Positions 8,634 to 23,941 of a stretch of DNA of 64,000 nucleotides are shown here, piece by piece. Both the position numbers and the translations under genes were made by a program. Below the pieces are notes generated by a model. It was not told where the DNA came from. It saw only the letters and a program-made list of their open reading frames with translations, and did not search any database. Numbering within the stretch: position 1 is the stretch's first letter; each line of letters begins with the position of its first letter. The DNA comes from an uncultured Sporobacter sp. (GTDB lineage: Bacteria; Bacillota; Clostridia; Oscillospirales; Oscillospiraceae). The stretch is from the NCBI GenBank assembly GCA_963675425.1, contig OY776214.1, positions 2,316,978 to 2,380,977 on the forward strand, given 5' to 3'.

Positions 8634-8976
8634 AACAATTCCTCCTCATAATTTTTATAGTTCATGCTGATCTTTTAAGGATATTTAGCCCAAATATAAT
8701 TCTCATCCCTTCCTTCCCTTCCTTCTTGATAGGCTATCTCTTTCCTTTCAGCACGTTCATTCACCCAATATATAGCCGGCAGATTTCATTTTCTTGCAAA
8801 TAATATTGAGTAATTATTGTAATCCAAGCTGTAAGAAATTAGCGGCTTATTCGTTCTTGGTTCCTGGAATACTTCCGCCTCTCATATCTGCTATGTATAT
8901 TCCGGGCATTTTTATATGCGGTTGAGCCTCTGTAAACATGGGGGCGTTCAAATATAATCCGTATTTTTACAGTGTA

Positions 8977-9285
8977 TATTTACGCCGTAAGATTATCACG
9001 TCGCTGTTCTAATAGCAATACCTAAATTAAATAGTTATGCTCGTCTTTTTTTGTTATTATTGTTATTTGTCAAAGGGGATTAGGGTGATGTTTCTTGCAG
9101 AATGCACATGACTTATCGACATACCGAGCTTTACAAACAGAATTTTATGCCGACAGGCAGGCGTTTAAAATTAACTGCAATTAATATTTACGCCGTAAGA
9201 ATATCATGCCTTTTTTCTAATAGCAATACCTTATTTAAAATCATTATGCGAACTTATTTTTGTTATTGTTTTCACTTGTCAAGGG
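8977..9285. promoter_or_regulatory. Duplicated ~105-bp intergenic block (8977-9078 and 9184-9285) with TTAC-N3-GTAA palindromes
   Basis: atatttacgccgtaaga-tatca...tctaatagcaatacct...ttatgc...tgttatt...ttgtcaa-gg occurs twice; third short copy tttacaatgtaagaatat near 9316-9333. Confidence 0.7.
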
Positions 9286-9348
9286 TCATTAAATATGTTA
9301 CTCTGATAATATAAATTTACAATGTAAGAATATAAAGGAGTTGATTAC

Positions 9349-9621
9349 ATGAATTGGGAACAGATCGTTATTTATAAAAAAGATGAGGTTGATGCTTTAT
9401 TAACAGAAAGAGGGATACTTGATGAGGACATAAAAAAAGTAATTTCGCAGGCTATAGAAAGCGGCGAAAAATTATACCAGGAAGAGGAGTACAGATTTCT
9501 GGCTAAAGCCAAGCTGGAGAGGTTTACAGTTTATGTGGAATATTCACCTGAAAATGACGGATTCCGCATCCATACAGGTTATAGCCATCGAGTTGATTTT
9601 AAATCAGAGCATGTAGAATAG
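9349..9621 (+). CDS. Small protein resembling the isolated C-terminal domain of the oxidoreductase/dicluster protein of DVU_155x-type loci
   Basis: LLTERGILDEDIKKVISQAIESGEKL...FTVYVEYSPENDGFRIHTGYSHR; AAGGAG RBS; family resemblance from recall. Confidence 0.65.
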   Translation: MNWEQIVIYKKDEVDALLTERGILDEDIKKVISQAIESGEKLYQEEEYRFLAKAKLERFTVYVEYSPENDGFRIHTGYSHRVDFKSEHVE

Positions 9622-9635
9622 GAGGTGTTTAATAA

Positions 9636-9827
9636 ATGGGTGAATGGTTATGTTCAACTTGTAAAGTAAAAATGGAAGAAGTGGATGATATCCAGATCTT
9701 TTATGGAGAAGTAGACTTGCCGGATGCATTAGGGATCAGATGCCCGAGCTGCGGCCGAGAATATCTATTGGAACAATTTGTGACGGATGAACTCATCGCT
9801 GCTGAAGAAATGCTTGAAGGCAAATAG
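9636..9827 (+). CDS. DVU_1557-family Zn-ribbon redox protein
   Basis: WLCSTCKV...IRCPSCGREYL...AAEEMLEGK; two CxxC pairs; GGAGG RBS. Confidence 0.8.
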   Translation: MGEWLCSTCKVKMEEVDDIQIFYGEVDLPDALGIRCPSCGREYLLEQFVTDELIAAEEMLEGK

Positions 9828-9838
9828 GAGAAACCTGA

Positions 9839-10576
9839 ATGGCGAAGACAGAAAAACCGTTGATTGAAGTATTTGGTCAGCGTCCTGGCCGGTTTAAGTT
9901 AGCGCTGAAGGGCGCTGAAATAGCAGGCATAAACTGCCGAAGTAAAGTTTTGGAAGTTGGCTGTTCTTACGGCGACACCTCGTTTTTGCTGGCGGAGTCC
10001 TTTGACTGTGAAGTAACCGGGATTGATTTAGAGCGTGAGTACATTGTCCAGGCCGCTGCCAGGACAGATCATACCGACCATAAAGTGCAATTTTGCGTTG
10101 CTGATGTGGTAAAAATGCCTTTTATGGATCAAGCGTTTGATTATATATTTTGCGAAGCGGCGTATTCTCTTTTAAAAGATAAAGAAGCTGCCGTAGATGA
10201 ATATCATAGAGTTTTGGGCGAAAAAGGAAAGGTAATTGTTAATGATTTTTATTTAAAAAGACAAGTTTCGGAAAACGTTCAAAAAAAGATGGATTTTATA
10301 CCGTGCTTTTATGGAATAAAAACTGCTGAAGAATATTGTAAGATTTTTAGCGAGAAAGGATTCAGTCAACTGTTGTTTGCTGATTATTCAAGTGAAATTA
10401 TCAGGATTTCAATGTGGCTGAGCAAAGCGTATGGCGTATCTTCCAAAGAATTGAACCGGCTGTTTGTCAAGCTTTTAAGCCAAAATGATGACGATCATTG
10501 TGATTGTTTAAACGACAGCAACGAATTTTTCAAGGAAGCCAGGCTGGGTTACGGCCAATTTATATTCGGAAAATAA
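9839..10576 (+). CDS. Class I SAM-dependent methyltransferase (DVU_1556-like by context)
   Basis: VLEVGCSYGDT motif I, VTGIDL, MPFMDQAFDYIFCE. Confidence 0.85.
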   Translation: MAKTEKPLIEVFGQRPGRFKLALKGAEIAGINCRSKVLEVGCSYGDTSFLLAESFDCEVTGIDLEREYIVQAAARTDHTDHKVQFCVADVVKMPFMDQAFDYIFCEAAYSLLKDKEAAVDEYHRVLGEKGKVIVNDFYLKRQVSENVQKKMDFIPCFYGIKTAEEYCKIFSEKGFSQLLFADYSSEIIRISMWLSKAYGVSSKELNRLFVKLLSQNDDDHCDCLNDSNEFFKEARLGYGQFIFGK

Positions 10577-10595
10577 TGATAAGAAGGGGATTCAA

Positions 10596-11384
10596 ATTAT
10601 TTTTGCAGGTGTAGATATTGGGTCGACAACGGCAAAAGCAGTATTGCTTGATGAGAATGAAGAAATTTTAGCGTCGGCAATTGTTTATACGAGCTTTGAC
10701 CGCAATGAAAGCGGTATGGAAGTATTAAATCTGGCATTGGAAGAATGCGGGAAATCATTAAAAGATGTAGAATATGTGGTTTCAACGGGTTATGGCAGAA
10801 GAGCCCTGAAGATATCCAATGATGCCATACCGGAGATCATTGGCCACGCTTTGGGAACCCAAAAATTATATCCCGGGGTACGGACCATTATTGACATCGG
10901 AGGCCAGGACAGCAAAGTCATCGCGCTTGATGAAAAAGGAATAATCGAAAAATTTGAGATGAATGACAAATGCGCTGCAGGAACAGGCCGCTTTTTTGAA
11001 GTTTTAGCAGGCCGTTTGTTAAATATATCAATGGATGAATTGGGGCCGCTTTATCTAAAAGCTGAAAATCCTTGTACAATCAGCAGTATGTGTACCATTT
11101 TTGCCGAATCGGAGATTATTTCCTACTTGTCGGAAGGTAAGCTCAAAGAAGACATCATTGCAGGAATGATTAATTCCGTAGCCCGCAGGGTGGTGGCCAT
11201 GGGTAAAACCGGGCAGATTCGATATGAAGAGCCGATTATTCTCTCGGGGGGAGTAGCCAAAAACATCGGGGCGGTAAAAGCCTTTTCAGAAATTATCGGC
11301 AAAGAAGTTCAGGCTATTGAAAACCCACAGTTAACGGGGGCAATGGGGGCGGCACTGAAAGCAAAGGACGAATTTACGAAATAG
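10596..11384 (+). CDS. 2-hydroxyacyl-CoA dehydratase/benzoyl-CoA reductase activase (ASKHA ATPase, HgdC/BadF-like)
   Basis: In-frame upstream of the ORF-track start: (I)IFAGVDIGSTTAKAVLL; STGYGR, IDIGGQDSK, MNDKCAAGTGRF, ISSMCTIFAESE, GGVAKN; probable ATT start at 10596. Confidence 0.93.
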   Translation: MIFAGVDIGSTTAKAVLLDENEEILASAIVYTSFDRNESGMEVLNLALEECGKSLKDVEYVVSTGYGRRALKISNDAIPEIIGHALGTQKLYPGVRTIIDIGGQDSKVIALDEKGIIEKFEMNDKCAAGTGRFFEVLAGRLLNISMDELGPLYLKAENPCTISSMCTIFAESEIISYLSEGKLKEDIIAGMINSVARRVVAMGKTGQIRYEEPIILSGGVAKNIGAVKAFSEIIGKEVQAIENPQLTGAMGAALKAKDEFTK

Positions 11385-11398
11385 GAAGGTGAACAAGG

Positions 11399-12793
11399 GT
11401 GAAGGATTTTGACGTGGTTGTAATCGGCGGTGGTTCCGGCGGTTGTGCCGCTGCAAGCAGGTCGGCCGATCTCGGGAAAAAGGTGGCGTTAATCGAAGGC
11501 AGAGGGAAAGAAGGCCTCGGCGGAACATGTATTAATAGGGGCTGTATACCGGCTAAAATACTTTTGGCATCCGCTGAAACGTATTCCGGGGTGCAGAAAG
11601 CCAAAGATTTTGGAATTGGGGTAACAGGCATCTCCTTTGACTATGAAAAAATCGAGCAGAAAAAACAGGCGTCAATCAAAACCTTGCGGTTCGGCTTGCA
11701 GAATTACATTCTTAAACCCAGAGGAATTGAAATTATCACCGGTTTTGGTAAGATAATTGACTCTCATACGGTAGAGGTGCATGACAACGGGCAGACAGAA
11801 CGGGTTCGGGGTGAAAATATAATTATTGCTTCCGGTTCCGAGCCGGCTATGATTCCATCTTTTCATATTGATGGCCATAACGTCATTACCAGTGACGAAG
11901 CTTTAGAGGTTCGGGAGATCCCCCCGAAGATTACAATTATCGGAGCGGGCGCCCTGGGACTTGAGTTTGCGCATTTGTTTTCAACGTTTGGCAGCAAGGT
12001 GACAGTTGTGGAAATGGCGCCTCAGGTCGTGCCGGCTTTGAAGGATAAGGAATTCACCGGTATGGTTCAAAAATACTTGGAGAAGCAGGGAATTACCGTC
12101 AAGACCGGAGTCAAAATCGACGGCGTAGAAGTCGTTGATGCAGGAAAGGTCGTTTCCAGTTTAAGCAACGGTGAGAAAATCGAAAGCAGTAAAGTGCTGG
12201 TCGCCATCGGCCGCAAACTGAATACCGAAAATATGGGGATTTCGGAATCAGGAATAAAAATGGAAAAGGGCTGTATTCTTGTTGATGATGAAATGAGAAC
12301 GAATATCCCTAATGTATTAGCGGTAGGAGATATCGTCCACGGCCCCCAGCTTTCCCATAAAGCGCAACGGGAAGGAATCGTAGCTGCCGAAGTGATTGCA
12401 GGACTGAGTACGAAAATGGATTATGAGGTTATTCCCTGGGCTATTTTTACACAGCCTGAAATTGCAGCGGTAGGGCTGACCAGGGACGAAGCGGAAGAAC
12501 AGGGAATTAAAACTATTGTCGGCTCCATGCCTTTGATGGCGAATGAAAAGGCCAATGTCATGAAAAAAACAACCGGACAGGTTAAAATTGTAGCTCGCGT
12601 AGATAACAAACAGGTAATTGGCGCTCAGATTTTTGCAGCTGAAGCTTCCATTTTAATTGGCGAATTGGCCGTGGCAGTAAAAAACAAAATTTCCATTGAA
12701 GGCTTATCCAACACGGTTCATGTTCATCCGTCCTTGTCCGAAGCGATTATGGAAGCGAGTAAGAGCAGCTTAGGCAAAGCCTTTCACAAATAA
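11399..12793 (+). CDS. lpdA: Dihydrolipoyl dehydrogenase-like flavoprotein disulfide reductase
   Basis: GGGSGG, redox disulfide GGTCINRGCIPAK, GAGALGLE, HVHPSLSE; GTG start. Confidence 0.92.
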   Translation: MKDFDVVVIGGGSGGCAAASRSADLGKKVALIEGRGKEGLGGTCINRGCIPAKILLASAETYSGVQKAKDFGIGVTGISFDYEKIEQKKQASIKTLRFGLQNYILKPRGIEIITGFGKIIDSHTVEVHDNGQTERVRGENIIIASGSEPAMIPSFHIDGHNVITSDEALEVREIPPKITIIGAGALGLEFAHLFSTFGSKVTVVEMAPQVVPALKDKEFTGMVQKYLEKQGITVKTGVKIDGVEVVDAGKVVSSLSNGEKIESSKVLVAIGRKLNTENMGISESGIKMEKGCILVDDEMRTNIPNVLAVGDIVHGPQLSHKAQREGIVAAEVIAGLSTKMDYEVIPWAIFTQPEIAAVGLTRDEAEEQGIKTIVGSMPLMANEKANVMKKTTGQVKIVARVDNKQVIGAQIFAAEASILIGELAVAVKNKISIEGLSNTVHVHPSLSEAIMEASKSSLGKAFHK

Positions 12794-12834
12794 ATTTCAA
12801 CGAAATTATTTACCCCAAAAAGGAGGCTAAAAGA

Positions 12835-13989
12835 ATGGAAAAAACTTTACGAGAATTGGATGAAGCAGCGAAAAAACGCCCCATTCAGCTGAAAGAGGCA
12901 AAGAAACAAGGCAAAAAGGTTATTCAATACACGGGTAATTTTATACCACCGGAAATGATTTATGCGGCAGGAGCGGAGCCGTATCTTATGTGCAGGGGCG
13001 GAGAACCTGAACCGCCGGACGCTGTCCTGGAGTATATGCTGCGTTTTATGAATCCGCTGGCCAGGTCCATGGCCGGTTATCACATGCTGGGCCTTGATCC
13101 TGTAACGCCGATATCTGATCTGATCGTGACCCAGCAGACCGATTGTCATGTAGGCAGGGTGACAGAACTGTTGGAATTTTTAAAACTGCCCATTCATAAA
13201 GTAGGTGTTCCCTCCGACTGGAAAAAAGGATTTACAGCTGAGTATTACTATAAGTCTTTAGATAAATTAAAAAAAAGACTGGAGGATATAACCGGCAATA
13301 GTATCACGAACGACAATCTGAAGAAATATATCGGTTATACCAACCGGATTAATCGAGTATTAAGAAAAATCGACGACCTGCGTAAAAAAGATAATCCGCC
13401 GCTCGGGGAAAACGAATTCATTCACCTCAATCATTATTCTTTGCTGTGCGAGCCTGAATTTGCAGCTGACAAACTGGAAGAACTATATGAAAAGATAAAA
13501 GACGCTCCCGGCAAGTTCCCGGAAAAAGCTCCCAGATTGCTTTTCGCGGGGCATGCCCTGGCAATCGGAGATTACATTGTCCCTAAACTGATCGAGGACT
13601 ATGGCTCCGTGATTGTTACAGAAATGCTTGATGAAGGAATCCGGCCTTTCAAGTTTGATATAGAAACCGAAGGGGATATGCTTCGTAATTTTGGGGAAAC
13701 CATGTTTTTGAAAAAGACACCTATTAATGTGTTCCAGCCTTCCTGGGAAGACAGGTTTGCCTACATGAAGCAGCTCATCAGTGACTATAAGGTAGACGGC
13801 GTAATTTGGTATCAATTATGTTTCGACGAAATTTACGACATGGAGTGTACCTGCCTGGCTAAATGGCTCGGTGAATTGAACATACCGCTTTTAAAACTGG
13901 AATCCTCTTATGAATACTCCAGGGAGGCAATGGGCCCGCTAAAAACAAGAGTTGAGAGTTTTCTCGAATCTATAAAAGGGAGGAAATAG
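12835..13989 (+). CDS. 2-hydroxyacyl-CoA dehydratase-family subunit (beta/HgdB/BcrC-like)
   Basis: IQYTGNFIPPEMIYAAG, LEDITGNSITNDNLKK, DYKVDGVIWYQLCFDE, LKTRVESFLE. Confidence 0.88.
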   Translation: MEKTLRELDEAAKKRPIQLKEAKKQGKKVIQYTGNFIPPEMIYAAGAEPYLMCRGGEPEPPDAVLEYMLRFMNPLARSMAGYHMLGLDPVTPISDLIVTQQTDCHVGRVTELLEFLKLPIHKVGVPSDWKKGFTAEYYYKSLDKLKKRLEDITGNSITNDNLKKYIGYTNRINRVLRKIDDLRKKDNPPLGENEFIHLNHYSLLCEPEFAADKLEELYEKIKDAPGKFPEKAPRLLFAGHALAIGDYIVPKLIEDYGSVIVTEMLDEGIRPFKFDIETEGDMLRNFGETMFLKKTPINVFQPSWEDRFAYMKQLISDYKVDGVIWYQLCFDEIYDMECTCLAKWLGELNIPLLKLESSYEYSREAMGPLKTRVESFLESIKGRK

Positions 13990-13990
13990 C

Positions 13991-15415
13991 ATGGCTACTA
14001 ATGTGTATGAAGAGTTTTTGGAGCTTTGTGCTTTTGAGCCGGAGGAAATACCGGAAATCCTGCCGCAATGGATCGAGGCCGCTAAGACTTTTGAGCTGAC
14101 GGAAGAGGACATCCGCTTCTCTATAGAAAAGTGGATCCCGGAGAATTGGGATATCCAGTATAGGGGTATCCGCAAGATGATTGGTGCTTGGATCAGGGAA
14201 CTGATTGAACTTAGCAAGGCAACGAAGTATAAAGAAGCGGGCGCCAAGATAATCTATGGGATCATACCGGCTATTACAACCAGTTATCAGGCGATGAAAT
14301 ACAGCGCCGGGGACAATATTTACATAAGTTTTCCCGACGCTATGCTGGTAACGGTCCTGAATGCATTTTTCCATAAAGTCAACCCCTACTTGGAATGTGC
14401 GGAGGAAAACGGCTTTACCTATGGCTGCCGTCATTGTGCGTTGAATAAAACAAGGATTGCAGCCCGCTGGAAAAAAGTGATCCCGGCTCCCGATGTGATC
14501 TGGTCCTGGGGGTTTAACTGCGACGAAGGACCGAAAACGGATGAATATATTCAATGCCTGTTTGATAAGGATTGGAAATACGTTATTACCAGGCTTCCGC
14601 ACGATACCAGTTTTGGGGAGAACGACGACGAACTGGAAGACCGGGTAGAATTTGTGGCTCAGGAGATCAAGGACGGCCTGAGACAAATTGAGGAGATAAC
14701 GGGAATTGAAATAACGGAAGAGCATATGAAAAAAGCGCTGCAAGATTCCAACAGGTATGCGTTTAAAAACGGGATGCTCGTTAGTTTAATGTCCAAAGCT
14801 GATCCCGTGCCTCTGGGTGGAAGTGATATCGTCAATTTCCAGCAGCCGATGGGTGTGCCCTTTAATACCGGTCTAAAATACCTGGAGGAAGCGATTGATT
14901 TGACCATCAAAGAAGTCAGACAAGCCATAAAAGACGGGAAAGGCGTGGCTCCCAAAGGCGCTCCCAAAGTAGCCTTTTACGGCGTGCCTATTGCCGTACC
15001 CTGGGTTGACAGAATGTTCCGGGAGAACGGGGTTGCCCCTACGTTAAGTTTTAATCTGTCGCCAACGAAAAAAATGCTGATGCCTCAAAAATATACGGAC
15101 CCGTATATGGCAACAGCCGAACAATGGTTAAGAATGCCCTTGGGCATGAACATGAGAAGTGAAACAGATACCATGGTGCAAAAAATAAAAGATAATAAGC
15201 CGGATGCCGTGGTTATGGGTTTCTTCGACTTTGACAGGTGGCTCGGCGCCCAGCAAAAGATGGCGGCGAAGCTTATGGAAGATGAGACGGGGGTGTCTAC
15301 TTTTTATATGGAAGCGGACTGGTGGGAAGACAGGGACTATAGTCCGGAAGCCCTTCGTACCAGGATAGAAAGTATTTCCCAGGTATTAAAGCTTAAAAAA
15401 ATAAGCAATGAATAG
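13991..15415 (+). CDS. 2-hydroxyacyl-CoA dehydratase-family subunit (alpha-like), paralog 1, with N-terminal extension
   Basis: CRHCALNK, GFNCDEGPK, LEEITGIEITEEHMKKAL, EADWWEDRDYSPEALRTRIESI. Confidence 0.85.
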   Translation: MATNVYEEFLELCAFEPEEIPEILPQWIEAAKTFELTEEDIRFSIEKWIPENWDIQYRGIRKMIGAWIRELIELSKATKYKEAGAKIIYGIIPAITTSYQAMKYSAGDNIYISFPDAMLVTVLNAFFHKVNPYLECAEENGFTYGCRHCALNKTRIAARWKKVIPAPDVIWSWGFNCDEGPKTDEYIQCLFDKDWKYVITRLPHDTSFGENDDELEDRVEFVAQEIKDGLRQIEEITGIEITEEHMKKALQDSNRYAFKNGMLVSLMSKADPVPLGGSDIVNFQQPMGVPFNTGLKYLEEAIDLTIKEVRQAIKDGKGVAPKGAPKVAFYGVPIAVPWVDRMFRENGVAPTLSFNLSPTKKMLMPQKYTDPYMATAEQWLRMPLGMNMRSETDTMVQKIKDNKPDAVVMGFFDFDRWLGAQQKMAAKLMEDETGVSTFYMEADWWEDRDYSPEALRTRIESISQVLKLKKISNE

Positions 15416-15425
15416 TATTGAGCGA

Positions 15426-15561
15426 AAGCATAGCCAGTTAATGCTTAGTGTATAATAATTATTGGCCAGAAATAAGGAGGAATAGCGAAACTATTCCTCC
15501 TGTATACGAACTTGTTAATGTTGCCAACGTTTACCTGATACATGCCGGCTAATGGCTGTGC
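15426..15561 (+). other. Structured intergenic segment with a strong hairpin
   Basis: 11-bp perfect stem aggaggaatag/ctattcctcct (15475-15501); 15428-15440 can pair imperfectly with 15550-15561. Confidence 0.45.
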
Positions 15562-15635
15562 TTGCTTTTAGAATAAAATTAAGGTAATGTTTTCTATAGG
15601 GCAGTATCAATAATAATTGGAAGGCGCATGAGGCT

Positions 15636-17057
15636 ATGAATAATAATATTTATAAAGAGTTTTTAATGCTGACCGGTTTTGAAAAAGAAGAAATTGCAGA
15701 GTATTTGCCTGAATGGATAAAAGCCTCAAAAAAATTGGGTATTTCTGAAGAGGATATGAATCATGCTGTTAGAGAATGGCTACCCAAACACTGGAGTATT
15801 AACTTAAGGGGAATTAGGAAATGTATTGGCGCTTATATCAGAGAAGTAATTGAAATAACAAAAATATTTGAATATAAACAAAACGGAATTAAAGTGGTTT
15901 ATGGCTCTTTACCGGCTAATCCGATTAGTTTTCAGGCGATCAAAATAAGCGGCGGAGAAAAGGTTTTTGTGGGTTATCCGGGAATTCACATTGTTACAGT
16001 CTTGGGTTCCTTTTTTCATAAGACCTCGGCGTTTACTGAAAAGACTAATAAATGCATTCTGAATGCCGGTTGTCCTCACTGTGGCCTGACCAAGATGAGA
16101 TTGAGTGCCAAAATGGCGGAAGTAATTCCTTCGCCCGACGCCATTTGGAGCTGGGGATTTAATTGTAACGAAGCACCAAAAATGGATGAGTTTATTCATT
16201 GTTATGCTGATGCAAATTGGAAATCAGTATATTGCAGCCTTCCCCATGATACCTATTTAGGGGAAATAGAAAATGAAAGCCAAGAGAGGGTAAAGTATTT
16301 AGCTTTGCAAATTGAAGACGGGCAGCGGCAAATTGAAAAAATAACCGGGATCAAAGTAAGCGAGCAGCATTTTAACCAGGCCCTGGAGGATGCCGACCGG
16401 TTATTGCAAAAAGTTAATTGTCTCAATGATTTGGTTATTAATGCGGACCCGCAACCCTTAAGCGGCAATGAATTATCCCTTATCGAACAGATGATAACCA
16501 TAGCCTTTAATACCGGTTTAAAATATATGGAAGAGGCTATTGATATCACTATCGAGGAAGTGCGGGATTTAATTGACAGAAAAGAAGGAATTTTGCCGGT
16601 TGGAGCGCCTAAGCTGGGTTGTTATTTTGTCCCCTTCTGCGTGCCATGGGTTAATGGGTTATTCCTGGAAAACGGCGTGAATTTATCTTTTAGCACGTTC
16701 TATACAGCGGCGGATAAATTCCTGGAAAAGTCAAGCTATCAGGACCCATTCAGCATAATTGCTGAACAATGGCTGCAAATGCCGGGCAGTGTCAATATAG
16801 CATACGAAGTGGAACTGAATTGCCGGATACTTAGTAAATATAAGCCTGATGCCATGCTGCTTGGTTTCTACAGCTTTGAAAGATGGGTGGGGGTACATCA
16901 CAAAATAATTGTTAATAAGATTGAAGAAAAAATGAAAATACCTCATTTTTATATAGAAGGGGACATCTGGGAAGACGGGATGTTTCGCCTGGATGATTTA
17001 AGAACAAGGATCGAAACTATTTGCAATTTCTTGAAAATGAATAAAATGATTATTTAG
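15636..17057 (+). CDS. 2-hydroxyacyl-CoA dehydratase-family alpha-like paralog 2
   Basis: Colinear with 13991 protein: CPHCGLTK, GFNCNEAPK, ADPQPLSGNE, EGDIWED, LRTRIETI. Confidence 0.85.
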   Translation: MNNNIYKEFLMLTGFEKEEIAEYLPEWIKASKKLGISEEDMNHAVREWLPKHWSINLRGIRKCIGAYIREVIEITKIFEYKQNGIKVVYGSLPANPISFQAIKISGGEKVFVGYPGIHIVTVLGSFFHKTSAFTEKTNKCILNAGCPHCGLTKMRLSAKMAEVIPSPDAIWSWGFNCNEAPKMDEFIHCYADANWKSVYCSLPHDTYLGEIENESQERVKYLALQIEDGQRQIEKITGIKVSEQHFNQALEDADRLLQKVNCLNDLVINADPQPLSGNELSLIEQMITIAFNTGLKYMEEAIDITIEEVRDLIDRKEGILPVGAPKLGCYFVPFCVPWVNGLFLENGVNLSFSTFYTAADKFLEKSSYQDPFSIIAEQWLQMPGSVNIAYEVELNCRILSKYKPDAMLLGFYSFERWVGVHHKIIVNKIEEKMKIPHFYIEGDIWEDGMFRLDDLRTRIETICNFLKMNKMII

Positions 17058-17080
17058 ACTGTTTATTAGGAGCAGGTTAT

Positions 17081-18511
17081 ATGGGGGCGTTTTATGAAAA
17101 AATTCTTTCTCTTTGCGGCTTTGATCAGCAAGAAATAGCAAAGAATACCGGCAAACTACGCAGGGCTTGCGAAAAATTTGGGATTGATGAAGAACAGGTA
17201 GCCTTTGCTGCAGAGAAGTGGATACCTCAAAATTATGATTTAAAGCTGGAGGGAATAAGGAAACTTATTGGCGTTTATATCCGTGAATTTCTCAGCATTT
17301 TGGACCTGTCTCTGGATAAAAATGATAATCGTAAAATTGTCTACGGGACGGTTCCTTCCCCTGTGCCTCTTTTTCATGCCTTGAAAGACAGCTGCAAGGA
17401 GGGAATATATACTGGTGCCCCGGATTTTGTTTTCATGATCGTGTTAAACAGCTTTTTTCATTGGCGTAATATAGGTTTGGAAAGATTGGAGGAACAAGGA
17501 TTTACTCAAGCTTGCAGGCATTGCGCCCTTAATAAAATGCGGGCATTTATCTATTCCGATAATTATATTCCCAGTCCTGATATCGTCTGGACCTGGGGAA
17601 CTGCTTGTGATGAGGCGCCTAAAACTGAAGAGTTTATCCAATTTTGTTATGGTAAACAGTGGTTTTATGTTTCCACAAAAATGCCGCATGATACCTGCAA
17701 AGATGAACAGGGCGACAAGGAGCGGATAACATATCTGGCCAGGCAAATACAAGACGCCGTTTATACAATTGAACAAAAATGCCGATTAAAACTATCCCAA
17801 GAAGCTGTGAGGAAGGCAATGTATAATTGGGGTAAAATTACGGCCAAGATATATTACCTGAATACTTTGATTGCCAATGCCGACCCGGTCCCACTGGGAG
17901 GTAATGAGCTTTCCCTGATTAATTCATTGCAGCTGGCGCCATTGAATATAGAGGTTGAGCTTATTGAGGAGTCTATTGATATTATCATTAAAGAAGTAAA
18001 GGAACGGATCAGAAACGCAGAGGGAATATTACCACGTGGAGCTCCGAGGTTAGGTTGCTATCTTGTCCCTTTTTGCCTTCCCCATATTGTTAAACATTTT
18101 GAAAGGGCCGGTGTTGCTTTAACATTTAATACTTGTATGATGAGGGCAGGCATTCCGGATAATAAAGTACATGGTAGCTGTAAAGTGAGAGATAATAAAA
18201 CGGTTAAGCATCCTTATGAAATAATAGCCGGACAATGGCTGAGCTTGCCGTTGTTTAATAATGTTTTTTATGAAGCAAAGGCAATTGCTCATTTGCTTGC
18301 CAAGTATAAGAATGATGGTTTGATACTCGGTTTTTTCACATTTGACCGTTGGTTGGGGGCACACCAAAACCTTCTGAAAATCATACTCAAAGAATCAATT
18401 GCGAAACCGGTTTTTATAATGGAAGCAAATTTCTGGGATGAACGGTTTAATAATAAACAAAGAATAATAAATCAAATTGAAAGTATCGGAAGATTATTGG
18501 AGAAAGCGTAA
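17081..18511 (+). CDS. 2-hydroxyacyl-CoA dehydratase-family alpha-like paralog 3
   Basis: CRHCALNK, GTACDEAPK, ADPVPLGGNE, EANFWDER. Confidence 0.83.
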   Translation: MGAFYEKILSLCGFDQQEIAKNTGKLRRACEKFGIDEEQVAFAAEKWIPQNYDLKLEGIRKLIGVYIREFLSILDLSLDKNDNRKIVYGTVPSPVPLFHALKDSCKEGIYTGAPDFVFMIVLNSFFHWRNIGLERLEEQGFTQACRHCALNKMRAFIYSDNYIPSPDIVWTWGTACDEAPKTEEFIQFCYGKQWFYVSTKMPHDTCKDEQGDKERITYLARQIQDAVYTIEQKCRLKLSQEAVRKAMYNWGKITAKIYYLNTLIANADPVPLGGNELSLINSLQLAPLNIEVELIEESIDIIIKEVKERIRNAEGILPRGAPRLGCYLVPFCLPHIVKHFERAGVALTFNTCMMRAGIPDNKVHGSCKVRDNKTVKHPYEIIAGQWLSLPLFNNVFYEAKAIAHLLAKYKNDGLILGFFTFDRWLGAHQNLLKIILKESIAKPVFIMEANFWDERFNNKQRIINQIESIGRLLEKA

Positions 18512-19108
18512 ATGCCAAGAAAAAAAGTGATATTTGAAAAACAGAAAATTATTGATGCTTCTTTTCATATTATTAAAAGTGAGGGCAATGAAGCTTTCTC
18601 GGCCAGAAGATTAGCCACGGAACTAAACATTTCGTCAATGACTGTCTATAATTATTACAAAAACATTGATGAAATAAAAAAAGAAGTTATTATTAGAGGT
18701 TTTAGTATTCTTTACAAGATGATTTTTCGTGATATGGAAAACAAAAAGGAAAAGTTGGATGAAGACGGTATTGGTTGTTTATGCAGAATTATCGCGCTCA
18801 ATATGATGAATTTCGCTTTGGAAAATAAAGAAATATATATTTTGATGTTTACTGAGTACGGTTATAAGTTTAGAAATGATCACGAGATCAGGCTTTTTTA
18901 CAATTTCTTGCCGCAACTAGCCAATAGCATTAAACTTGCTCAATCTGAAGCGCAGGAATTAAAAAAAAGGTGCTATATATTTGAAAGCATGATTCAAAGG
19001 CTAATTATGGAAAAATTAAATAAGCTATATGATTATTCCCTGGAAGAATATAATGATTATATTGATTTTAGTTTAAAGCATTTATTTAGGATCGATTCAG
19101 AAGGATGA
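18512..19108 (+). CDS. TetR/AcrR-family transcriptional regulator
   Basis: N-terminal HTH SARRLATELNISSMTVYNYYKNIDEI; TAA-ATG coupling to the upstream gene. Confidence 0.92.
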   Translation: MPRKKVIFEKQKIIDASFHIIKSEGNEAFSARRLATELNISSMTVYNYYKNIDEIKKEVIIRGFSILYKMIFRDMENKKEKLDEDGIGCLCRIIALNMMNFALENKEIYILMFTEYGYKFRNDHEIRLFYNFLPQLANSIKLAQSEAQELKKRCYIFESMIQRLIMEKLNKLYDYSLEEYNDYIDFSLKHLFRIDSEG

Positions 19109-19117
19109 GGTGGAAAA

Positions 19118-20455
19118 ATGAATAGTATAACTGACACGAAAAGTCTATGTCCGGAATGTCTGAACATAATCCCGGCGCATTATGTTGTTGATAATAATAA
19201 TGTCTATTTACATAAAGAATGTCCTGAACATGGTCCGTATAAAGCCCTGGTATGGAGAGATGCCGAGTTATATGAACAATGGCAATCACAGAGTACCCAT
19301 GCGGAAAAAATGGAAAATGGCATTCCCCCGGTAAAGGGGTGTCCCTTGGACTGCGGCTTGTGTACCGAACATGAGGGAGGGACCTGTACAGCCGTTGTGG
19401 AAGTTACTTATCGCTGCAATATGAATTGTCCCGTTTGTTTTGCGGATAGTGCTCAAGAAATTTTCGAGCCGGACATCGATAAAATCCGGGAGATGTTTGT
19501 TGCTGTCCAGAATGAACAAAACACCCTTTGTTCGGTCCAAATAAGCGGAGGGGAACCAACAGTGAGAGATGATCTGCATGAGATTATCCGGTTGGGGAAA
19601 GAGATGGGGTTCGAGCATATTCAAGTTAATACGAACGGCTTGAGAATAGCGGAAGACTTTAATTATTTGCAGCAGCTTAAAGATAGTGGCGCTGATCTAA
19701 TATATTTGCAGTTTGACGGACTGAATGATGACATCTATCAAGCGCTTCGCGGAAAAAAAATGCTTGATACCAAGTTGAAGGCCATCGAAAACTGCCGGGC
19801 TGTTAATATTGGGGTCCTTTTGGTGCCGACAATTGTTCCCCAAGTTAATTTTTCTGAAATAGGTCGGATTATTAATTTTGCCAGAGAACAAATGCCCATA
19901 GTCAAGGGAATCCACTTTCAGCCTGTAAGTTACTTCGGTCGTTTTCCGGTAAGCAGCCCGCAGGATGAGGATAGAGTCACGCTGGCTGATATTGTCAAAG
20001 GAATCGAAGCGCAGACCCAGGGAGAAATAAAAGTTAGGAACCTTGTTCCCCGTAAAAGGTTCAATTCTCACTGCGCGTTCAGCGGATTGTTTTATTTACA
20101 GGATAATGGGAAGTTTCAGCCTATTACCCAAAACAAAACAGAGGAAGTGCCCGAACCCGAAAAAACGACTCAGGATTTTGTGGCCAAGGCAAATCAGTAC
20201 ACCAAAAACCATTGGCAACTGACAAGCGATCCTCAGAAGGAAAAGCAGACGCCTCAATCCGGAAGCCTGGCGAAAAGAATAAAAGACTATACCCTGTCGC
20301 TAACCGGTATGCCTTTCCAGGACGTTTGGAATATTGATATAGGCAGGCTAAAGGGCTGTTGTGTTCAGGTGGTTGATAATAAGGGACAGCTAATTCCACT
20401 TTGCGCTTTTCATCTGACCAGTACAAAAGGGAAAAGGTTGTATCGCAATGAATAA
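19118..20455 (+). CDS. Radical SAM protein, TrsS/MJ0619(Tes)-like architecture, copy 1
   Basis: N-terminal CPEC...CPEHG, GCPLDCGLC, CNMNCPVC SAM motif, SGGEPT, C-terminal HCAF, GCCVQV, PLCAF. Confidence 0.9.
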   Translation: MNSITDTKSLCPECLNIIPAHYVVDNNNVYLHKECPEHGPYKALVWRDAELYEQWQSQSTHAEKMENGIPPVKGCPLDCGLCTEHEGGTCTAVVEVTYRCNMNCPVCFADSAQEIFEPDIDKIREMFVAVQNEQNTLCSVQISGGEPTVRDDLHEIIRLGKEMGFEHIQVNTNGLRIAEDFNYLQQLKDSGADLIYLQFDGLNDDIYQALRGKKMLDTKLKAIENCRAVNIGVLLVPTIVPQVNFSEIGRIINFAREQMPIVKGIHFQPVSYFGRFPVSSPQDEDRVTLADIVKGIEAQTQGEIKVRNLVPRKRFNSHCAFSGLFYLQDNGKFQPITQNKTEEVPEPEKTTQDFVAKANQYTKNHWQLTSDPQKEKQTPQSGSLAKRIKDYTLSLTGMPFQDVWNIDIGRLKGCCVQVVDNKGQLIPLCAFHLTSTKGKRLYRNE

Positions 20456-21758
20456 ACAACGGGACAGGGCATTTTTAATTAAAGAAACCGTAAGCTTATG
20501 CCCTCGCTGTCTGAAGCGGATCCCGGCCAGAATAGAGGAAGTAAACAGCGAGATATATATGAATAAAAGGTGCCCCGAGCATGGCGAATTTCAAACGGTT
20601 ATCTGGCGGGACAATAAGGAAAACTATCTGCAATGGCTGGAATATGGCGGGGGAGAGTCTTTCCTTTCTTCGGAAATACAATCCGACTCCGGTTCAGGAT
20701 GTCCTCATGACTGCGGGCTGTGTGAAGACCACCGGCAGGAAATTTGTTCAGCAGCAATTATGGTTACCAACCGATGCAATCTTAATTGTCCGGTTTGCTT
20801 TACCCGGAGTCCTGAAGAGCATTATTATGAACCTGATTTAAACAGTATTAGAAGTATGTATGAATTTTACCTAAATTCGTGTGGTGAACCATATCCTGTG
20901 GAATTATGCGGGGGTGAACCTACGGTAAGGGATGACCTGCCGCAAATCATTGCGTTGGGAAAGCAATTGGGTTTTGATTATATCCAGCTCAACACGAATG
21001 GCATTAGAATCGCCCAGGATCAGGAGTATTTACATAAGTTAAAAAATGCCGGATTAACAACCGTATACTTGGGATTAGACGGAATATCGGAAGAGCCTTA
21101 TAAATATTCTTCCGGGTATTATCTGGGAAAAAGCATTCTAAGTTATAAGCTGCAGGCTATTAAAAACTGTGCGGAAGCCGGTTTGGCTGTGATTTTGGTT
21201 CCCTGTGTTATTCCCGGGGTCAATGACAGTCAATTAGGAGAAATTATCCGTCTGGCGAAGAAATGGATGCCGGCGGTTAAAGGCGTTCATTTTCAGCCAA
21301 TCAGCTATTTCGGCAATTATCCTGTCGAGCCTCAAAATAAAGACAGGATTACCATACCGGAAGTTTTACGGGCCATCGAAGAACAAACCGGTGGCGAGGT
21401 AAAACGGGATCATTTTCTGCCGACGGGCTGCGAGCATCCCCAATGTTCCTTTAATGGATTTTTTATGATGGCGAAAAATGGAAAGCTGCAGGCTTTGACC
21501 AAATACCAAAAAAGAGAGCAGCGGGAGAGTGAGCCCGCAAAAAAGACGCGTCGTTTCACCAAAACCCAATGGATATATAATGAGCGGATGTCTTTAACCA
21601 TAGGAGGAATGGCGTTCCAGGATGCCTGGAATGTTGATCTTGAAAGATTAAAGCGGTGTATTATTCATATTATCTGCTCTAATCAAAAATTTGTTCCTTT
21701 ATGCGCCAAGTATCTGACGGGTGAAAATGGGTTAAAAATCTTTCCGGGGATAAGCTGA
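20448..21758 (+). CDS. Radical SAM protein, TrsS/MJ0619(Tes)-like architecture, copy 2
   Basis: CPRC...CPEHG, GCPHDCGLC, CNLNCPVC, GGEPT, GCEHPQCSF, RCIIHI, PLCAK; overlaps copy 1 by 8 nt. Confidence 0.9.
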   Translation: MNKQRDRAFLIKETVSLCPRCLKRIPARIEEVNSEIYMNKRCPEHGEFQTVIWRDNKENYLQWLEYGGGESFLSSEIQSDSGSGCPHDCGLCEDHRQEICSAAIMVTNRCNLNCPVCFTRSPEEHYYEPDLNSIRSMYEFYLNSCGEPYPVELCGGEPTVRDDLPQIIALGKQLGFDYIQLNTNGIRIAQDQEYLHKLKNAGLTTVYLGLDGISEEPYKYSSGYYLGKSILSYKLQAIKNCAEAGLAVILVPCVIPGVNDSQLGEIIRLAKKWMPAVKGVHFQPISYFGNYPVEPQNKDRITIPEVLRAIEEQTGGEVKRDHFLPTGCEHPQCSFNGFFMMAKNGKLQALTKYQKREQRESEPAKKTRRFTKTQWIYNERMSLTIGGMAFQDAWNVDLERLKRCIIHIICSNQKFVPLCAKYLTGENGLKIFPGIS

Positions 21759-21769
21759 GGTATTTATTT

Positions 21770-23134
21770 ATGAATGGCATTGTGAAGATGCAGGACGGCC
21801 TGTTCAGGCTGTGCAGGAACCAGATTACCGAAGAAAAGCAATTCGGGCAGGAAAAAAATCTGACGCCGGACGCTAAAATCACGAATCAAATATTTGAGGA
21901 ATTCCGTTTATATAAATTAAAGAAAACGCTGCAGTACGTTTATGATAAAAGTAAATTTTACCGTGAGCTTTTCGACCGGCATAACATATTACCGGAAGAT
22001 ATTCAGTCTATACAGGACTTAAAAAAGATCCCATTAACGTCCTCCCAGGACCTGGCTGCCAGGGGGTACGACTTTCTATGCCTGTCGCAGGGAGCAATGG
22101 AAAAAGCTGTTACCTTTACCAGTTCGGGGACTGTTGGCCCTCAGAAGAAGATCTTTTTTACCGCAGGTGATCTGGAAAAGATGACAGATTTTATGGGTGT
22201 GGGCATGAATACTGTAACCGGGGCGGATGGTGTTGTCCAGATCCTGCTTCCCAGTGGGCCGGTCATGGGTCAAGCCGATTTGCTGGCCCAGGGAGTTCGG
22301 AAAATGGGAGCGGAAGCTGTTTATACAGGGATGTTTGTTCCCAGCGAAGAGCAGATTCAAGCAATTATTAAGTATGGAAGCACTGTGATTTTTGGCGAAA
22401 CCAGATTGATTTACCGCATAACAAAAGAGATGGAAGATAAGTACGATCTAGCTAAATTGGGCGTTAAGACACTCTTCGTAACAACAAGTCATCTTTCGGA
22501 TGTTATGCGTCAAAATCTTGAAACAGCCTGGAATTGTCAAATAGTGACCCACTATGGTCTGACTGAAATGGGCCTGGGCCTGGCAGTTGATTGTCCTTAT
22601 GGTGAGGGTTACCACACCAACGAGTTAGATGTAATTGCCGAGCTTGTTGATCCGAAAACAGGTGAGGTTTTGCCGGACGGAAAAGAGGGCGAACTGGTAT
22701 TTACGACGATCACCAGGGATGGGATGCCGTTAATCCGTTACCGGACGCATGATATAGCCACGTTAACCTCTCAAACTTGCCCCTGTGGTTCTCATTTAAA
22801 TACAATCAGCCGAATCAACCGCAGGTTGGAATCCATTGTGCAAATAAGCCCGGAATTCAGTATTTATCCCGCTTTATTTGACGATGTTTTGTTTAAACTA
22901 CCCGAGGTAGTAGATTACGAAATTTACCTGGAGAAAAAGGACGGGAAACAAAACCTTATATTTGAAGTGGAGCTTACTGCAGAGAGTGAAAATGTAAAAA
23001 AAGAAATCATACGGCAATTACAGAATAACGAAATTATTATGAAATACTTTGATTTGCCGGTGATAAAAACCGTTCCCCCGGGAGCTTTAAAGGGTGGGGC
23101 ACATTTTAAAAAGATGATTAGAGTTTTACCTTAG
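21770..23134 (+). CDS. AMP-dependent CoA ligase, PaaK/F390-synthetase-like (DVU_1553-like by context)
   Basis: FTSSGTVG P-loop, HYGLTEMG, GELVFTT, PLIRYRTHD. Confidence 0.88.
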   Translation: MNGIVKMQDGLFRLCRNQITEEKQFGQEKNLTPDAKITNQIFEEFRLYKLKKTLQYVYDKSKFYRELFDRHNILPEDIQSIQDLKKIPLTSSQDLAARGYDFLCLSQGAMEKAVTFTSSGTVGPQKKIFFTAGDLEKMTDFMGVGMNTVTGADGVVQILLPSGPVMGQADLLAQGVRKMGAEAVYTGMFVPSEEQIQAIIKYGSTVIFGETRLIYRITKEMEDKYDLAKLGVKTLFVTTSHLSDVMRQNLETAWNCQIVTHYGLTEMGLGLAVDCPYGEGYHTNELDVIAELVDPKTGEVLPDGKEGELVFTTITRDGMPLIRYRTHDIATLTSQTCPCGSHLNTISRINRRLESIVQISPEFSIYPALFDDVLFKLPEVVDYEIYLEKKDGKQNLIFEVELTAESENVKKEIIRQLQNNEIIMKYFDLPVIKTVPPGALKGGAHFKKMIRVLP

Positions 23135-23215
23135 TAGGAATTTTTGTCTTGAAAGTATTTAACCGGGACTTACCGCAAACGCGGACATAATAATTTTAAG
23201 ATTTGAGGTATCGCT

Positions 23216-23860
23216 ATGGAAAACAAAACATCAGGAATACAAAGCCGGTCCGAGGCGGCGGTTATACCCGCGCCCGAACCCGATCCCAAAAGCATGTTCG
23301 GCGTAGATAAAAACATAAATATGGCGACCATAGACGATTGGCTTGGACGCGGCGACGTTCTTTACAGGGATGTCAGGATGCTGTTTGACCCGGCCGAATA
23401 CGCCACCATCGGCGGCAATCAGGAACTGTCCGAAACGATCACAGGTTTCAAAATCGTTCCCCATCCTTACCTTGCGACGCTTATGAAGCTCCCGGTCAAG
23501 AACGCCTATTTGGGCGATACGCTCTTTACGCTTACGTGGGATAAAAAGGGCGCGATCACGTCGGCGACAGCTAATTACAAGGAATCACTGACTATCCTTG
23601 AGGAGCTCTTCCCCAAAAACAAAAAAATATTCATTATGTGCGGCGGCGGCGGTTATGCCTCCATGACACGGGCGCTCCTGATCCATCTGGGTTGGAACGC
23701 GAACGACCTGTATAATATCGGCGGAAACTGGGCCTATAAAGGCGGTAACGCGCTCAAACTCATCGAGTACCCGGAAGAAACGGGCGGCGACACCCTTTAT
23801 GCGCTTTGGAGGGCCGACTATGCGCTGATCGATTTTACCAGACTTCACAAAGCGGAGTAA
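23216..23860 (+). CDS. Rhodanese-like domain protein
   Basis: YRDVRML, FIMCGGGGYAS active-site loop, YNIGGNWAY. Confidence 0.7.
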   Translation: MENKTSGIQSRSEAAVIPAPEPDPKSMFGVDKNINMATIDDWLGRGDVLYRDVRMLFDPAEYATIGGNQELSETITGFKIVPHPYLATLMKLPVKNAYLGDTLFTLTWDKKGAITSATANYKESLTILEELFPKNKKIFIMCGGGGYASMTRALLIHLGWNANDLYNIGGNWAYKGGNALKLIEYPEETGGDTLYALWRADYALIDFTRLHKAE

Positions 23861-23902: not shown

Positions 23903-23941
23903 AAGTGTGTAAACCGGAAATACGGTTTACACACTTTTTTC
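23903..23941 (+). terminator. Intrinsic terminator
   Basis: aagtgtgtaaaccg-gaaata-cggtttacacactt followed by a T tract. Confidence 0.75.

Follow-up and report, generated by a model that had tools for sequence, protein, structure and literature searches.

The window analyzed here is a 64,000-nucleotide stretch of contig OY776214.1 from an uncultured Sporobacter sp., a Sporobacter-like gut or sediment anaerobe. It contains an operon (9349 to 23860, every gene on the + strand) in which four proteins of the HGD-D family (PF06050) are encoded together with a single activase gene. In order, the operon carries genes for a 90-amino-acid (aa) protein, a zinc ribbon protein, a methyltransferase, the activase, an LpdA-type flavoprotein, the beta-like HGD-D protein BETA, and the alpha-like HGD-D protein A1, followed by a spacer, the alpha-like paralogs A2 and A3, a TetR-family regulator, two TrsS paralogs, a CoA ligase, and a 214-aa protein. 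The features that make up the activase and HGD-D module are as follows.

10596 to 11384, + strand: activase (archerase, BcrAD_BadFG); PF01869 217 bits over profile positions 2 to 271, TIGR00241 226 bits, over the cutoff.
12835 to 13989, + strand: BETA, a 384-aa HGD-D protein with a fold like that of the double-cubane cluster protein (DCCP), BzdN, and HadC; cluster ligands apparently mostly lost; predicted partner of A1.
13991 to 15415, + strand: A1, a 474-aa alpha-like HGD-D subunit starting one base past the BETA stop codon; Cys146/Cys149/Cys177 plus Asp415.
15416 to 15635, + strand: spacer of 220 bp with a 12-bp hairpin (15475 to 15501) and, right upstream of A2, about 110 nucleotides conserved versus the related genome L001.
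15636 to 17057, + strand: A2, a 473-aa paralog of the A2 lineage, elsewhere paired with a TetR gene; Glu at the Asp415 position.
17081 to 18511, + strand: A3, a 476-aa paralog of the fast-evolving A3 lineage, elsewhere adjoining the TrsS pair.

An earlier note on this DNA had described one beta-like subunit, three tandem alpha-like paralogs, and a single activase, and this arrangement, with one activase gene in the operon, was borne out. The three paralogs are indeed colinear proteins of about 475 aa, and their CxxC (CRHC/CPHC/CRHC in A1/A2/A3), C(D/N)ExPK (NCDEGPK/NCNEAPK/ACDEAPK), and ADP(V/Q)PL (ADPVPL/ADPQPL/ADPVPL) motifs were found in all details. All four proteins matched PF06050 over the cutoff (BETA, 209 bits; A1, 98 bits; A2 and A3, 64 bits each), with identities of 45% between A1 and A2, 37% between A1 and A3, 38% between A2 and A3 (472 aa), and 24% between BETA and A1 (328 aa). 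The N-terminal extension ascribed to the paralogs is real as well: when the profiles of the A and BETA families are aligned, the match begins only at A1 residue 160, corresponding to BETA residue 87, and in AlphaFold2 (AF2) models A1 shows five helices (residues 5 to 82) ahead of the first strand versus one in BETA. The A2 and A3 genes, which lie 23 nucleotides apart, are more AT-rich than A1, with a GC content (and GC content at third codon positions, GC3) of 0.389 (0.401) and 0.398 (0.375), respectively, versus 0.468 (0.543) for A1, and they follow the 220-bp spacer, as had been noted.

The module was placed among characterized systems by hidden Markov model scores and fold ranks. Foldseek searches with the AF2 model of A1 (pLDDT 91) ranked HadB first (TM score 0.80), then DCCP, BzdO, and MbdO, with beta types behind, and searches with the model of BETA (pLDDT 94) ranked DCCP first (TM score 0.90), then BzdN and HadC (0.88 to 0.90), with alpha types behind; the terms "alpha-like" and "beta-like" are thus justified on structural grounds. 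By sequence, DCCP was the best relative both of BETA (126 bits, 28 to 29% identity) and of the A profile (61 bits).

The filing of these proteins as HgdAB/FldBC/HadBC-like or Bcr-like did not hold, since all equivalog scores were far below the cutoffs. With the 2-hydroxyacyl-CoA dehydratases (HADs; HadBC, HgdAB, and FldBC with HadI/HgdC), the module shares the HGD-D fold, adjacent alpha- and beta-type genes encoding two homologous subunits (matches to chains A and B of 3o3m), a dedicated ATP-dependent archerase (TIGR00241, 226 bits; full-length PF01869), and a likely CoA-ester context. However, the HadB and HadC equivalogs scored only 39.3 versus a cutoff of 750 bits (NF052455) and 49.6 versus 700 bits (NF052456), and the three-Cys [4Fe-4S] site that HADs carry in each subunit is found neither in BETA nor in the A subunits, which have Asp for the third Cys, an extra Cys, and the N-terminal helical bundle. 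There are also three alpha-type genes per beta, and an AMP-forming ligase takes the place of the CoA-transferase and 2-hydroxyacid dehydrogenase, neither of which was found in the operon by Pfam and NCBIfam profile searches.

The class I benzoyl-CoA reductases (BCRs) and their relatives (BzdNO/BcrBC/MbdON) likewise combine two homologous HGD-D subunit types (a heterodimer in BCR, known from the genes here) with ATP-driven activation; the folds match chains of 8s02 and 9g87, and an aryl- or acyl-CoA ligase logic would also fit. In contrast, the four BCR equivalogs (TIGR02260, TIGR02263, TIGR03190, and TIGR03191) reached 16 to 51 bits versus cutoffs of 421 to 487, BETA is no six-Cys [8Fe-9S] storage subunit (six Cys in BzdN [PMC11971306] versus one of the six in BETA), and the operon encodes a single activase rather than two different activase subunits. 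As for DCCP and its reductase DCCP-R, the likeness extends to the single-gene activase and to a physiological substrate that is likewise not established for DCCP. Unlike DCCP, whose two identical monomers each hold a six-Cys [8Fe-9S] cluster, the module has two very different subunit types, neither of them six-Cys: BETA retains one of the six, and the A subunits retain two plus an Asp and an extra Cys. No protein reached the cutoff of 350 bits for DCCP (NF040772; BETA, 192.8; A1, 49.9; A2, 28.8; A3, 25.1 bits). Genomes in which selenium or organometallic loci of an unusual kind occur often hold multiple DCCP paralogs (bioRxiv 10.1101/2022.07.06.499078).

We then considered the cluster ligands. 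In BzdN, the [8Fe-9S] cluster is bound by Cys36, Cys73, Cys100, Cys263, Cys293, and Cys327 (PMC11971306), while the [4Fe-4S]-OH2 cluster of BzdO is bound by Cys95, Cys128, and Cys380 (PMC11971306, PMC11574389); DCCP has six such Cys per monomer and HAD subunits have three each (PMC11971306, PMC11574389), and in HADs the activase passes its electron to the beta cluster (PMC11574389). The equivalent positions in BETA, derived from an alignment of BETA with DCCP and BzdN and from the profile alignment of the A and BETA families, are occupied by Gly34, Asn73, Cys104, Asp266, Ile297/Val299, and Asp331, and the three canonical HAD positions are occupied by Asn73, Cys104, and Asp331. Among 74 BETA orthologs, not a single Cys is invariant (Cys53, 82%; Cys104, 81%; Cys329, 5 of 74), and several clostridial and spirochete lineages have neither Cys53 nor Cys104. 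The former cluster cavity is instead lined by the invariant polar residues R70, H105, R108, D266, E267, Q301, W304, and E332. The beta-type partner thus appears to have lost its relay cluster. The BETA family does not seem built for electron relay, and BETA is unlikely to be the shared electron-input subunit that the earlier note had proposed, because one of the six DCCP/BzdN ligand positions is retained in it and no Cys is invariant in the family.

The alignments place the cluster site in the A subunits, where it would comprise Cys146, Cys149, Cys177, and Asp415. Cys149, Cys177, Glu179, Lys182, and Asp415/Arg416 are kept in all three lineages, and Cys146 is kept in A1 and A2, while most A3-type proteins have a CxxxxC variant. 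Asp415, which is Glu in the A2 of the window, aligns directly with the Cys that serves as third ligand in HadB and BzdO and, by way of BETA, with its counterpart in DCCP and BzdN. A possible selenocysteine in A3-like genes, for which an in-frame TGA was flagged in two genomes, was rejected because the TGA lies upstream of the homologous open reading frame.

To determine how widespread the arrangement is, we compared 78 loci from species genomes and one ENA contig (L079), with whole-genome copy counts for the 25 genomes reached through these loci. The A family is rare in the order of the host (1 of 151 genomes sampled) and comprises about 143 clusters at an E value of ≤1e-30 in a library of 1.84 billion representatives; A1 itself has hundreds of relatives of about 475 aa that are 50 to 84% identical. 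BETA directly adjoins A1 in every locus with flanks present. In Dehalococcoidia, Actinomycetota, Acidobacteriota, and several Deltaproteobacteria, BETA, A1, and the activase are the entire system, with acyl-CoA dehydrogenases and carboxyltransferases as the commonest neighbors, and activase, BETA, and A1 are the core that is conserved across phyla. In Clostridia, the BETA-A1 pair is found within s90-zinc ribbon-methyltransferase-activase-LpdA-BETA-A1 operons, and additional A paralogs come in two recurring modules, namely, A2-TetR and A3-TrsS1-TrsS2-ligase, each in this gene order. All genomes that have A2 or A3 also have TrsS, which is missing from 4 of the 25 genomes, and these four have only the core. 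The ratios of BETA to A genes were the following.

1:3: the genome of the window, a Sporobacter metagenome-assembled genome (MAG), Cuneatibacter, Schaedlerella, an Anaerovoracaceae MAG, and an Oscillospiraceae MAG; probably one more.
2:3: three Oscillospiraceae with an extra BETA' in an A2-TetR-BETA'-s90-zinc ribbon-activase-A3 module.
1:2: a Sphaerochaetaceae genome; Myxococcota and Bdellovibrionota with activase-A1a-BETA-A1b operons.
1:1: the remaining phyla.

The 1:3 ratio hence occurs in at least six genomes (the window genome and G151, G155, G158, G162, and G165) from four clostridial families, and L079, with BETA-A1-A3, counts together with the A1a-BETA-A1b operons as an independent 1:2 case. 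The surplus of alpha-like subunits relative to beta-like ones recurs as a conserved design and is no accident of this genome. The A1a-BETA-A1b operons come from Bdellovibrionota and Myxococcota MAGs (L017, L018, and L019; e.g., L017:577-4688), where the gene ends overlap and A1a and A1b form sister clades around one BETA, an independent case of two cluster subunits per partner. The BETA' module was seen in six Oscillospiraceae loci (L030, L034, L035, L036, L039, and L042; e.g., L035:11684-18271, minus strand). BETA' is 37 to 47% identical to the BETA of the window and is nested within the BETA clade (support 98/100), which rules it out as an ancient partner of A2 and A3, since it is a late duplicate.

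In the tree of the A family, A1 forms a clade and A2, including that of the window, forms another, and the two are sisters (support 99). A3-type sequences lie deeper, on long branches, and A3 monophyly was not rejected (p-AU 0.41). Only three closer orthologs of the window's A3 (83, 61, and 58% identity) were found among 5.8 billion proteins. On this phylogeny, A1, A2, and A3 appear to be three old lineages and not recent tandem copies. Compared with L001, a 97%-identical Sporobacter MAG (synonymous divergence [dS] of about 0.3 to 0.46), the ratio of nonsynonymous to synonymous substitutions (dN/dS) was 0.045 for A1, 0.127 for A2, 0.244 for A3, and 0.079 for BETA, within the range of the remaining operon genes (0.236 for the methyltransferase). 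All three paralogs are thus under purifying selection, and the decay of paralogs 2 and 3 that a dN/dS near 1 would have signaled was not observed. In Clostridia, the cluster-bearing subunit therefore exists in three old, selected lineages beside one BETA and one operon activase.

The suggestion that the second and third paralogs were later accretions was upheld in part. In L079 (4169 to 15955), the order is zinc ribbon-methyltransferase-activase-LpdA-BETA-A1-A3-TetR-TrsS1-TrsS2-ligase, with A1 directly followed by A3 and no A2, and in the MAG contig L002, whose A1 is 85% identical, A2 has another position: together with a TetR gene it heads the operon, upstream of an A3 remnant. These two loci indicate that A2 and the spacer were inserted between A1 and A3 in the lineage of the window. 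A3, on the other hand, is a deep lineage tied to TrsS in several families, and L079 shows that it does not need A2; A3 without A2 was also found in Oceanispirochaeta. Conversely, an A2-type gene occurs without A3 in a Sphaerochaetaceae genome, and the extra paralog of L020, which has no A3, falls in the A2 clade. IS21, Mu-like, and DDE transposase genes follow the L079 cluster, and the cluster may be mobile.

To our knowledge, all solved members of the class I BCR/HAD/DCCP group route the ATP-energized electron via a beta-type cluster or via both monomers. We propose, with moderate confidence, that the module in the window represents an uncharacterized and deeply divergent branch of these archerase-activated iron-sulfur radical enzymes of the HGD-D fold, set in a TrsS/CoA-ligase operon, in which the A subunits are reduced directly. 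This branch would differ in three respects: the loss of the beta cluster, a Cys/Cys/Cys/Asp site in the alpha subunit, and several alphas per partner and activase. In the proposed mechanism, a single activase dimer would hydrolyze ATP and put a low-potential electron straight into the [4Fe-4S] cluster of an A subunit, and BETA would serve as a cluster-poor structural or substrate-pocket partner rather than as a relay. A2 and A3 would have arrived with the TetR/TrsS part of the system, and the substrates would be CoA thioesters made by the DVU_1553-type PaaK-like ligase, consistent with the presence of this ligase in the operon and of acyl-CoA dehydrogenases and carboxyltransferases beside the minimal loci.

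Within this model, the chance falls somewhat short of even that A2 and A3 are alternative catalytic subunits that share the activase and BETA with A1 while each carrying out a different reduction or dehydration of CoA thioesters. Sharing of BETA is favored because A3 occurs without A2 and A2 without A3, and because of the A1a-BETA-A1b operons and the recruitment of BETA'. The idea of combinatorial specificity put forward in the earlier note survives in this modified form, in that the recurrence of the 1:3 and 1:2 ratios and the intact, selected paralogs support it, while BETA as a shared electron-input subunit had to be given up. If borne out biochemically, these three differences would amount to a new way of wiring low-potential radical enzymes. 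The system also lets one ask whether subunit exchange diversifies the substrate range. An organism with a complete genome exists, and among its relatives are Schaedlerella arabinosiphila DSM 106076 and Cuneatibacter sp. NSJ-177. In addition, an enzymatic module is now tied to the still function-less TrsS neighborhood.

Several points weigh against this proposal. The ligands were assigned from four independent alignments and the DSSP register rather than from model coordinates. The BETA of the window may itself hold a cluster, which is conceivable because in its lineage, shared with L001 and L002, BETA carries five Cys (Cys53, Cys104, Cys329, Cys338, and Cys340). The cofactor of the A subunits may differ from a plain [4Fe-4S] cluster, since cluster-ligand positions are not usually taken by a carboxylate, and the depth of A3 in the tree may partly be a long-branch effect of its fast rate. 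Finally, the pairing of subunits, whether of A2 and A3 with BETA, with each other, or as homodimers, is deduced from gene content, and the CoA-ester substrate class is deduced from genomic context.

We regard one alternative as unlikely, though it deserves serious weight: A2 and A3 could work without BETA, either each as a homodimer in the manner of DCCP or together as a heterodimer, a second enzyme of alpha/alpha' type, with the activase as the only component in common with BETA-A1. Among proteins of solved structure, the homodimeric DCCP is closest in sequence to the A profile, each A subunit has its own predicted cluster site, so that no relay partner would be needed, and A2 and A3, neighbors here, are found in a 1:1 ratio in most of the clostridial genomes with at least one of them. 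Moreover, elsewhere in this genome there is one activase per module, which suggests that it is the activase, and not BETA, that must be shared. However, A1, with the same cluster site, never occurs without BETA, and the recruitment of BETA' into the A2/A3 module of some Oscillospiraceae suggests that A2 and A3 use a BETA-type partner. An obligate A2-A3 pair is unlikely because each occurs without the other, A3 in L079 and Oceanispirochaeta and the A2 type in a Sphaerochaetaceae genome; the A2-clade paralog of L020 weakens the obligate heterodimer as well.

We consider it improbable that the earlier model applies literally, that is, that this is a HAD- or BCR-type enzyme with a common electron-input and storage beta and three exchangeable specificity alphas. 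Its assignment of alpha and beta folds was correct according to Foldseek, the 1:3 and 1:2 ratios recur, the BETA of the window does have Cys53, Cys104, and Cys329, and delivery of the electron to the beta cluster is what the HAD activase does (PMC11574389). Against this stand the 74 BETA orthologs with zero invariant Cys, with Asn73, Cys104 (81%), and Asp331 at the canonical positions and with lineages devoid of both Cys53 and Cys104, and the scores for the HadC, BcrC, and BzdN equivalogs, at about 50 bits versus 421 to 700.

Little credence can be given to a scheme in which A2 and/or A3 are not pathway enzymes but NifEN-like scaffolds or maturases and the TrsS pair, methyltransferase, and ligase build a cofactor for the emptied cavity of BETA-A1. 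In several families, the TrsS pair does follow immediately after an A3-type gene, A3 evolves fastest, and the BETA cavity, although without cysteines, is lined by invariant polar residues; the occurrence of BETA-A1-activase without TrsS in 4 of 25 genomes also identifies A2, A3, and TrsS as an add-on. It is equally doubtful that this cavity, with its invariant Arg, His, Asp, Glu, and Trp, holds a new organic or metallo-cofactor made by TrsS, the methyltransferase, and the ligase on A3 (and A2) as scaffolds, in which case the operon would represent a new cofactor pathway plus its user enzyme. However, BETA-A1-activase exists in other phyla without TrsS, A2, or A3, from which it follows that the core needs no such cofactor; A2 and A3 retain the cluster and polar motifs of A1, which fits catalysis, and no precedent for such scaffolds is known within the superfamily.

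It is highly improbable that A2 and A3 are superfluous or degenerating copies without a function of their own. Their GC and GC3 are lower than those of A1, the dN/dS of A3 is the highest among the HGD-D genes, and only the first 123 residues of A3 are left in L002, but both frames are full-length with all family-wide motifs, their dN/dS values (0.13 and 0.24) resemble those of other operon genes, both lineages persist across clostridial families, and a full-length, 61%-identical A3 ortholog (P0123) exists. The truncation itself (L002:11203-11628, where A3 runs into TrsS1 after about 123 residues) was not relied on as evidence of decay, as it lies on a MAG contig and, given P0123, may be an assembly artifact or a local event.

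The other features of the operon are listed below.

9349 to 9621, + strand: 90-aa protein corresponding to the C-terminal domain of NF045663; 70.6 bits, profile positions 675 to 757 of 759.
9636 to 9827, + strand: 63-aa zinc ribbon protein, DUF7479/DVU_1557-like; PF24292 43.3 bits (cutoff, 27), NF045645 30.8 bits (cutoff, 60).
9839 to 10576, + strand: class I S-adenosylmethionine (SAM) methyltransferase, DVU_1556-like; NF045667 117 bits, under the cutoff of 155.
11399 to 12793, + strand: dihydrolipoyl-dehydrogenase-type flavoprotein disulfide reductase (LpdA-type); TIGR01350 472 bits, over the cutoff of 409.
18512 to 19108, + strand: TetR-family regulator, starting immediately past the A3 stop codon; GC 0.296.
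19118 to 20455 and 20448 to 21758, + strand: two overlapping TrsS radical-SAM paralogs; NF045646 553.6 and 512.9 bits (cutoff, 490); both Cys forms.
21770 to 23134, + strand: DVU_1553-family AMP-dependent (PaaK-like) CoA ligase; NF045666 340.3 bits (cutoff, 300).
23216 to 23860, + strand: 214-aa protein, last gene of the operon; GC 0.519, GC3 0.633.
23903 to 23936, + strand: intrinsic terminator ending the operon; 14-bp stem followed by a T run.

Compared by NCBIfam families, the operon encodes proteins that belong to or resemble the five families of the TrsS/DVU_1553-DVU_1557 neighborhood (NF045646, NF045666, NF045667, NF045645, and NF045663), a neighborhood reportedly treated by Haft and Tolstoy in 2025 (as cited in PMC13188914). 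The two TrsS proteins and the ligase exceeded the curated cutoffs, the methyltransferase (117 of 155 bits) and the DVU_1557-like protein (30.8 of 60 bits) did not, and the zinc ribbon passed as DUF7479 (43.3 versus 27 bits). In contrast to that neighborhood, TrsS is present in the Cys form and not the selenocysteine form, and the oxidoreductase is split into the LpdA-like protein and the 90-aa domain; the activase, BETA, and A1-A3 module that the locus carries may be a further difference. NF045663 is a pyridine nucleotide-disulfide oxidoreductase/dicluster protein family that occurs near selenoproteins; the LpdA-type protein matches the N-terminal part of the fused oxidoreductase, and the 90-aa gene encodes its separate C-terminal domain. 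The LpdA-type gene keeps the same place in clostridial relatives, and its surroundings contain neither E1/E2 nor glycine-cleavage genes. The genome has a third TrsS copy at a distant site (G000:C1:1387825-1389123), and the second TrsS copy of relatives usually gets a much lower NF045646 score than the first. The 214-aa protein matched no family in Pfam or NCBIfam; the GC content of its gene is much above that of the rest of the operon, and among the loci fetched it was seen in L001 only. Neither did we find any description of this HGD-D branch in the literature searched, nor anything under the DVU_155x locus tags.

The activase gene probably has a noncanonical start codon. The listed open reading frame, which begins at TTG 10644, lacks the N-terminal ATP-binding strand, and a full-length PF01869 match was obtained only from 10596 (217 versus 190 bits). 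Read from ATT 10596, the protein begins IIFAGVDIGSTTAKAV and is preceded by the ribosome-binding site AAGAAGGGG. In the rest of the genome, there are four further activase domains, each next to another HGD-D module; three further modules containing activases lie outside the window (G000:C1:2268396-2271525, 3705883-3708173, and 673014-674720). One of them, about 47 kb upstream of the window, consists of a classical activase and two HGD-D genes (253 and 243 bits), and the other two comprise a weak pair and a fused double activase in a 1,013-aa frame.

Separate regulation of the second and third paralogs, as the earlier note had suggested, fits the spacer. The hairpin is conserved and has no U-tract, and the approximately 110 nucleotides upstream of A2 are more conserved than synonymous sites in the comparison with L001. 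The spacer is probably an attenuating hairpin combined with an internal promoter. Rfam searches of the spacer and the leader returned no relevant riboswitch or known RNA, and the folding of the spacer is only modestly better than that of shuffled sequence (z = -2.0). The 715-bp leader contains a direct repeat of about 107 nucleotides (8976 to 9082 and 9184 to 9291, 72 to 86% identical), and the first two of the following palindromes lie within it.

8979 to 8992, 9187 to 9200, and 9316 to 9329, + strand: palindromes TTTACRNYGTAAGA; three in the window, all upstream of the operon, versus 0.32 expected.

As TTTACRNYGTAAGA occurs in the leader and nowhere else in the 64-kb window, these sites are candidate operators, perhaps for the TetR-family regulator of the operon.

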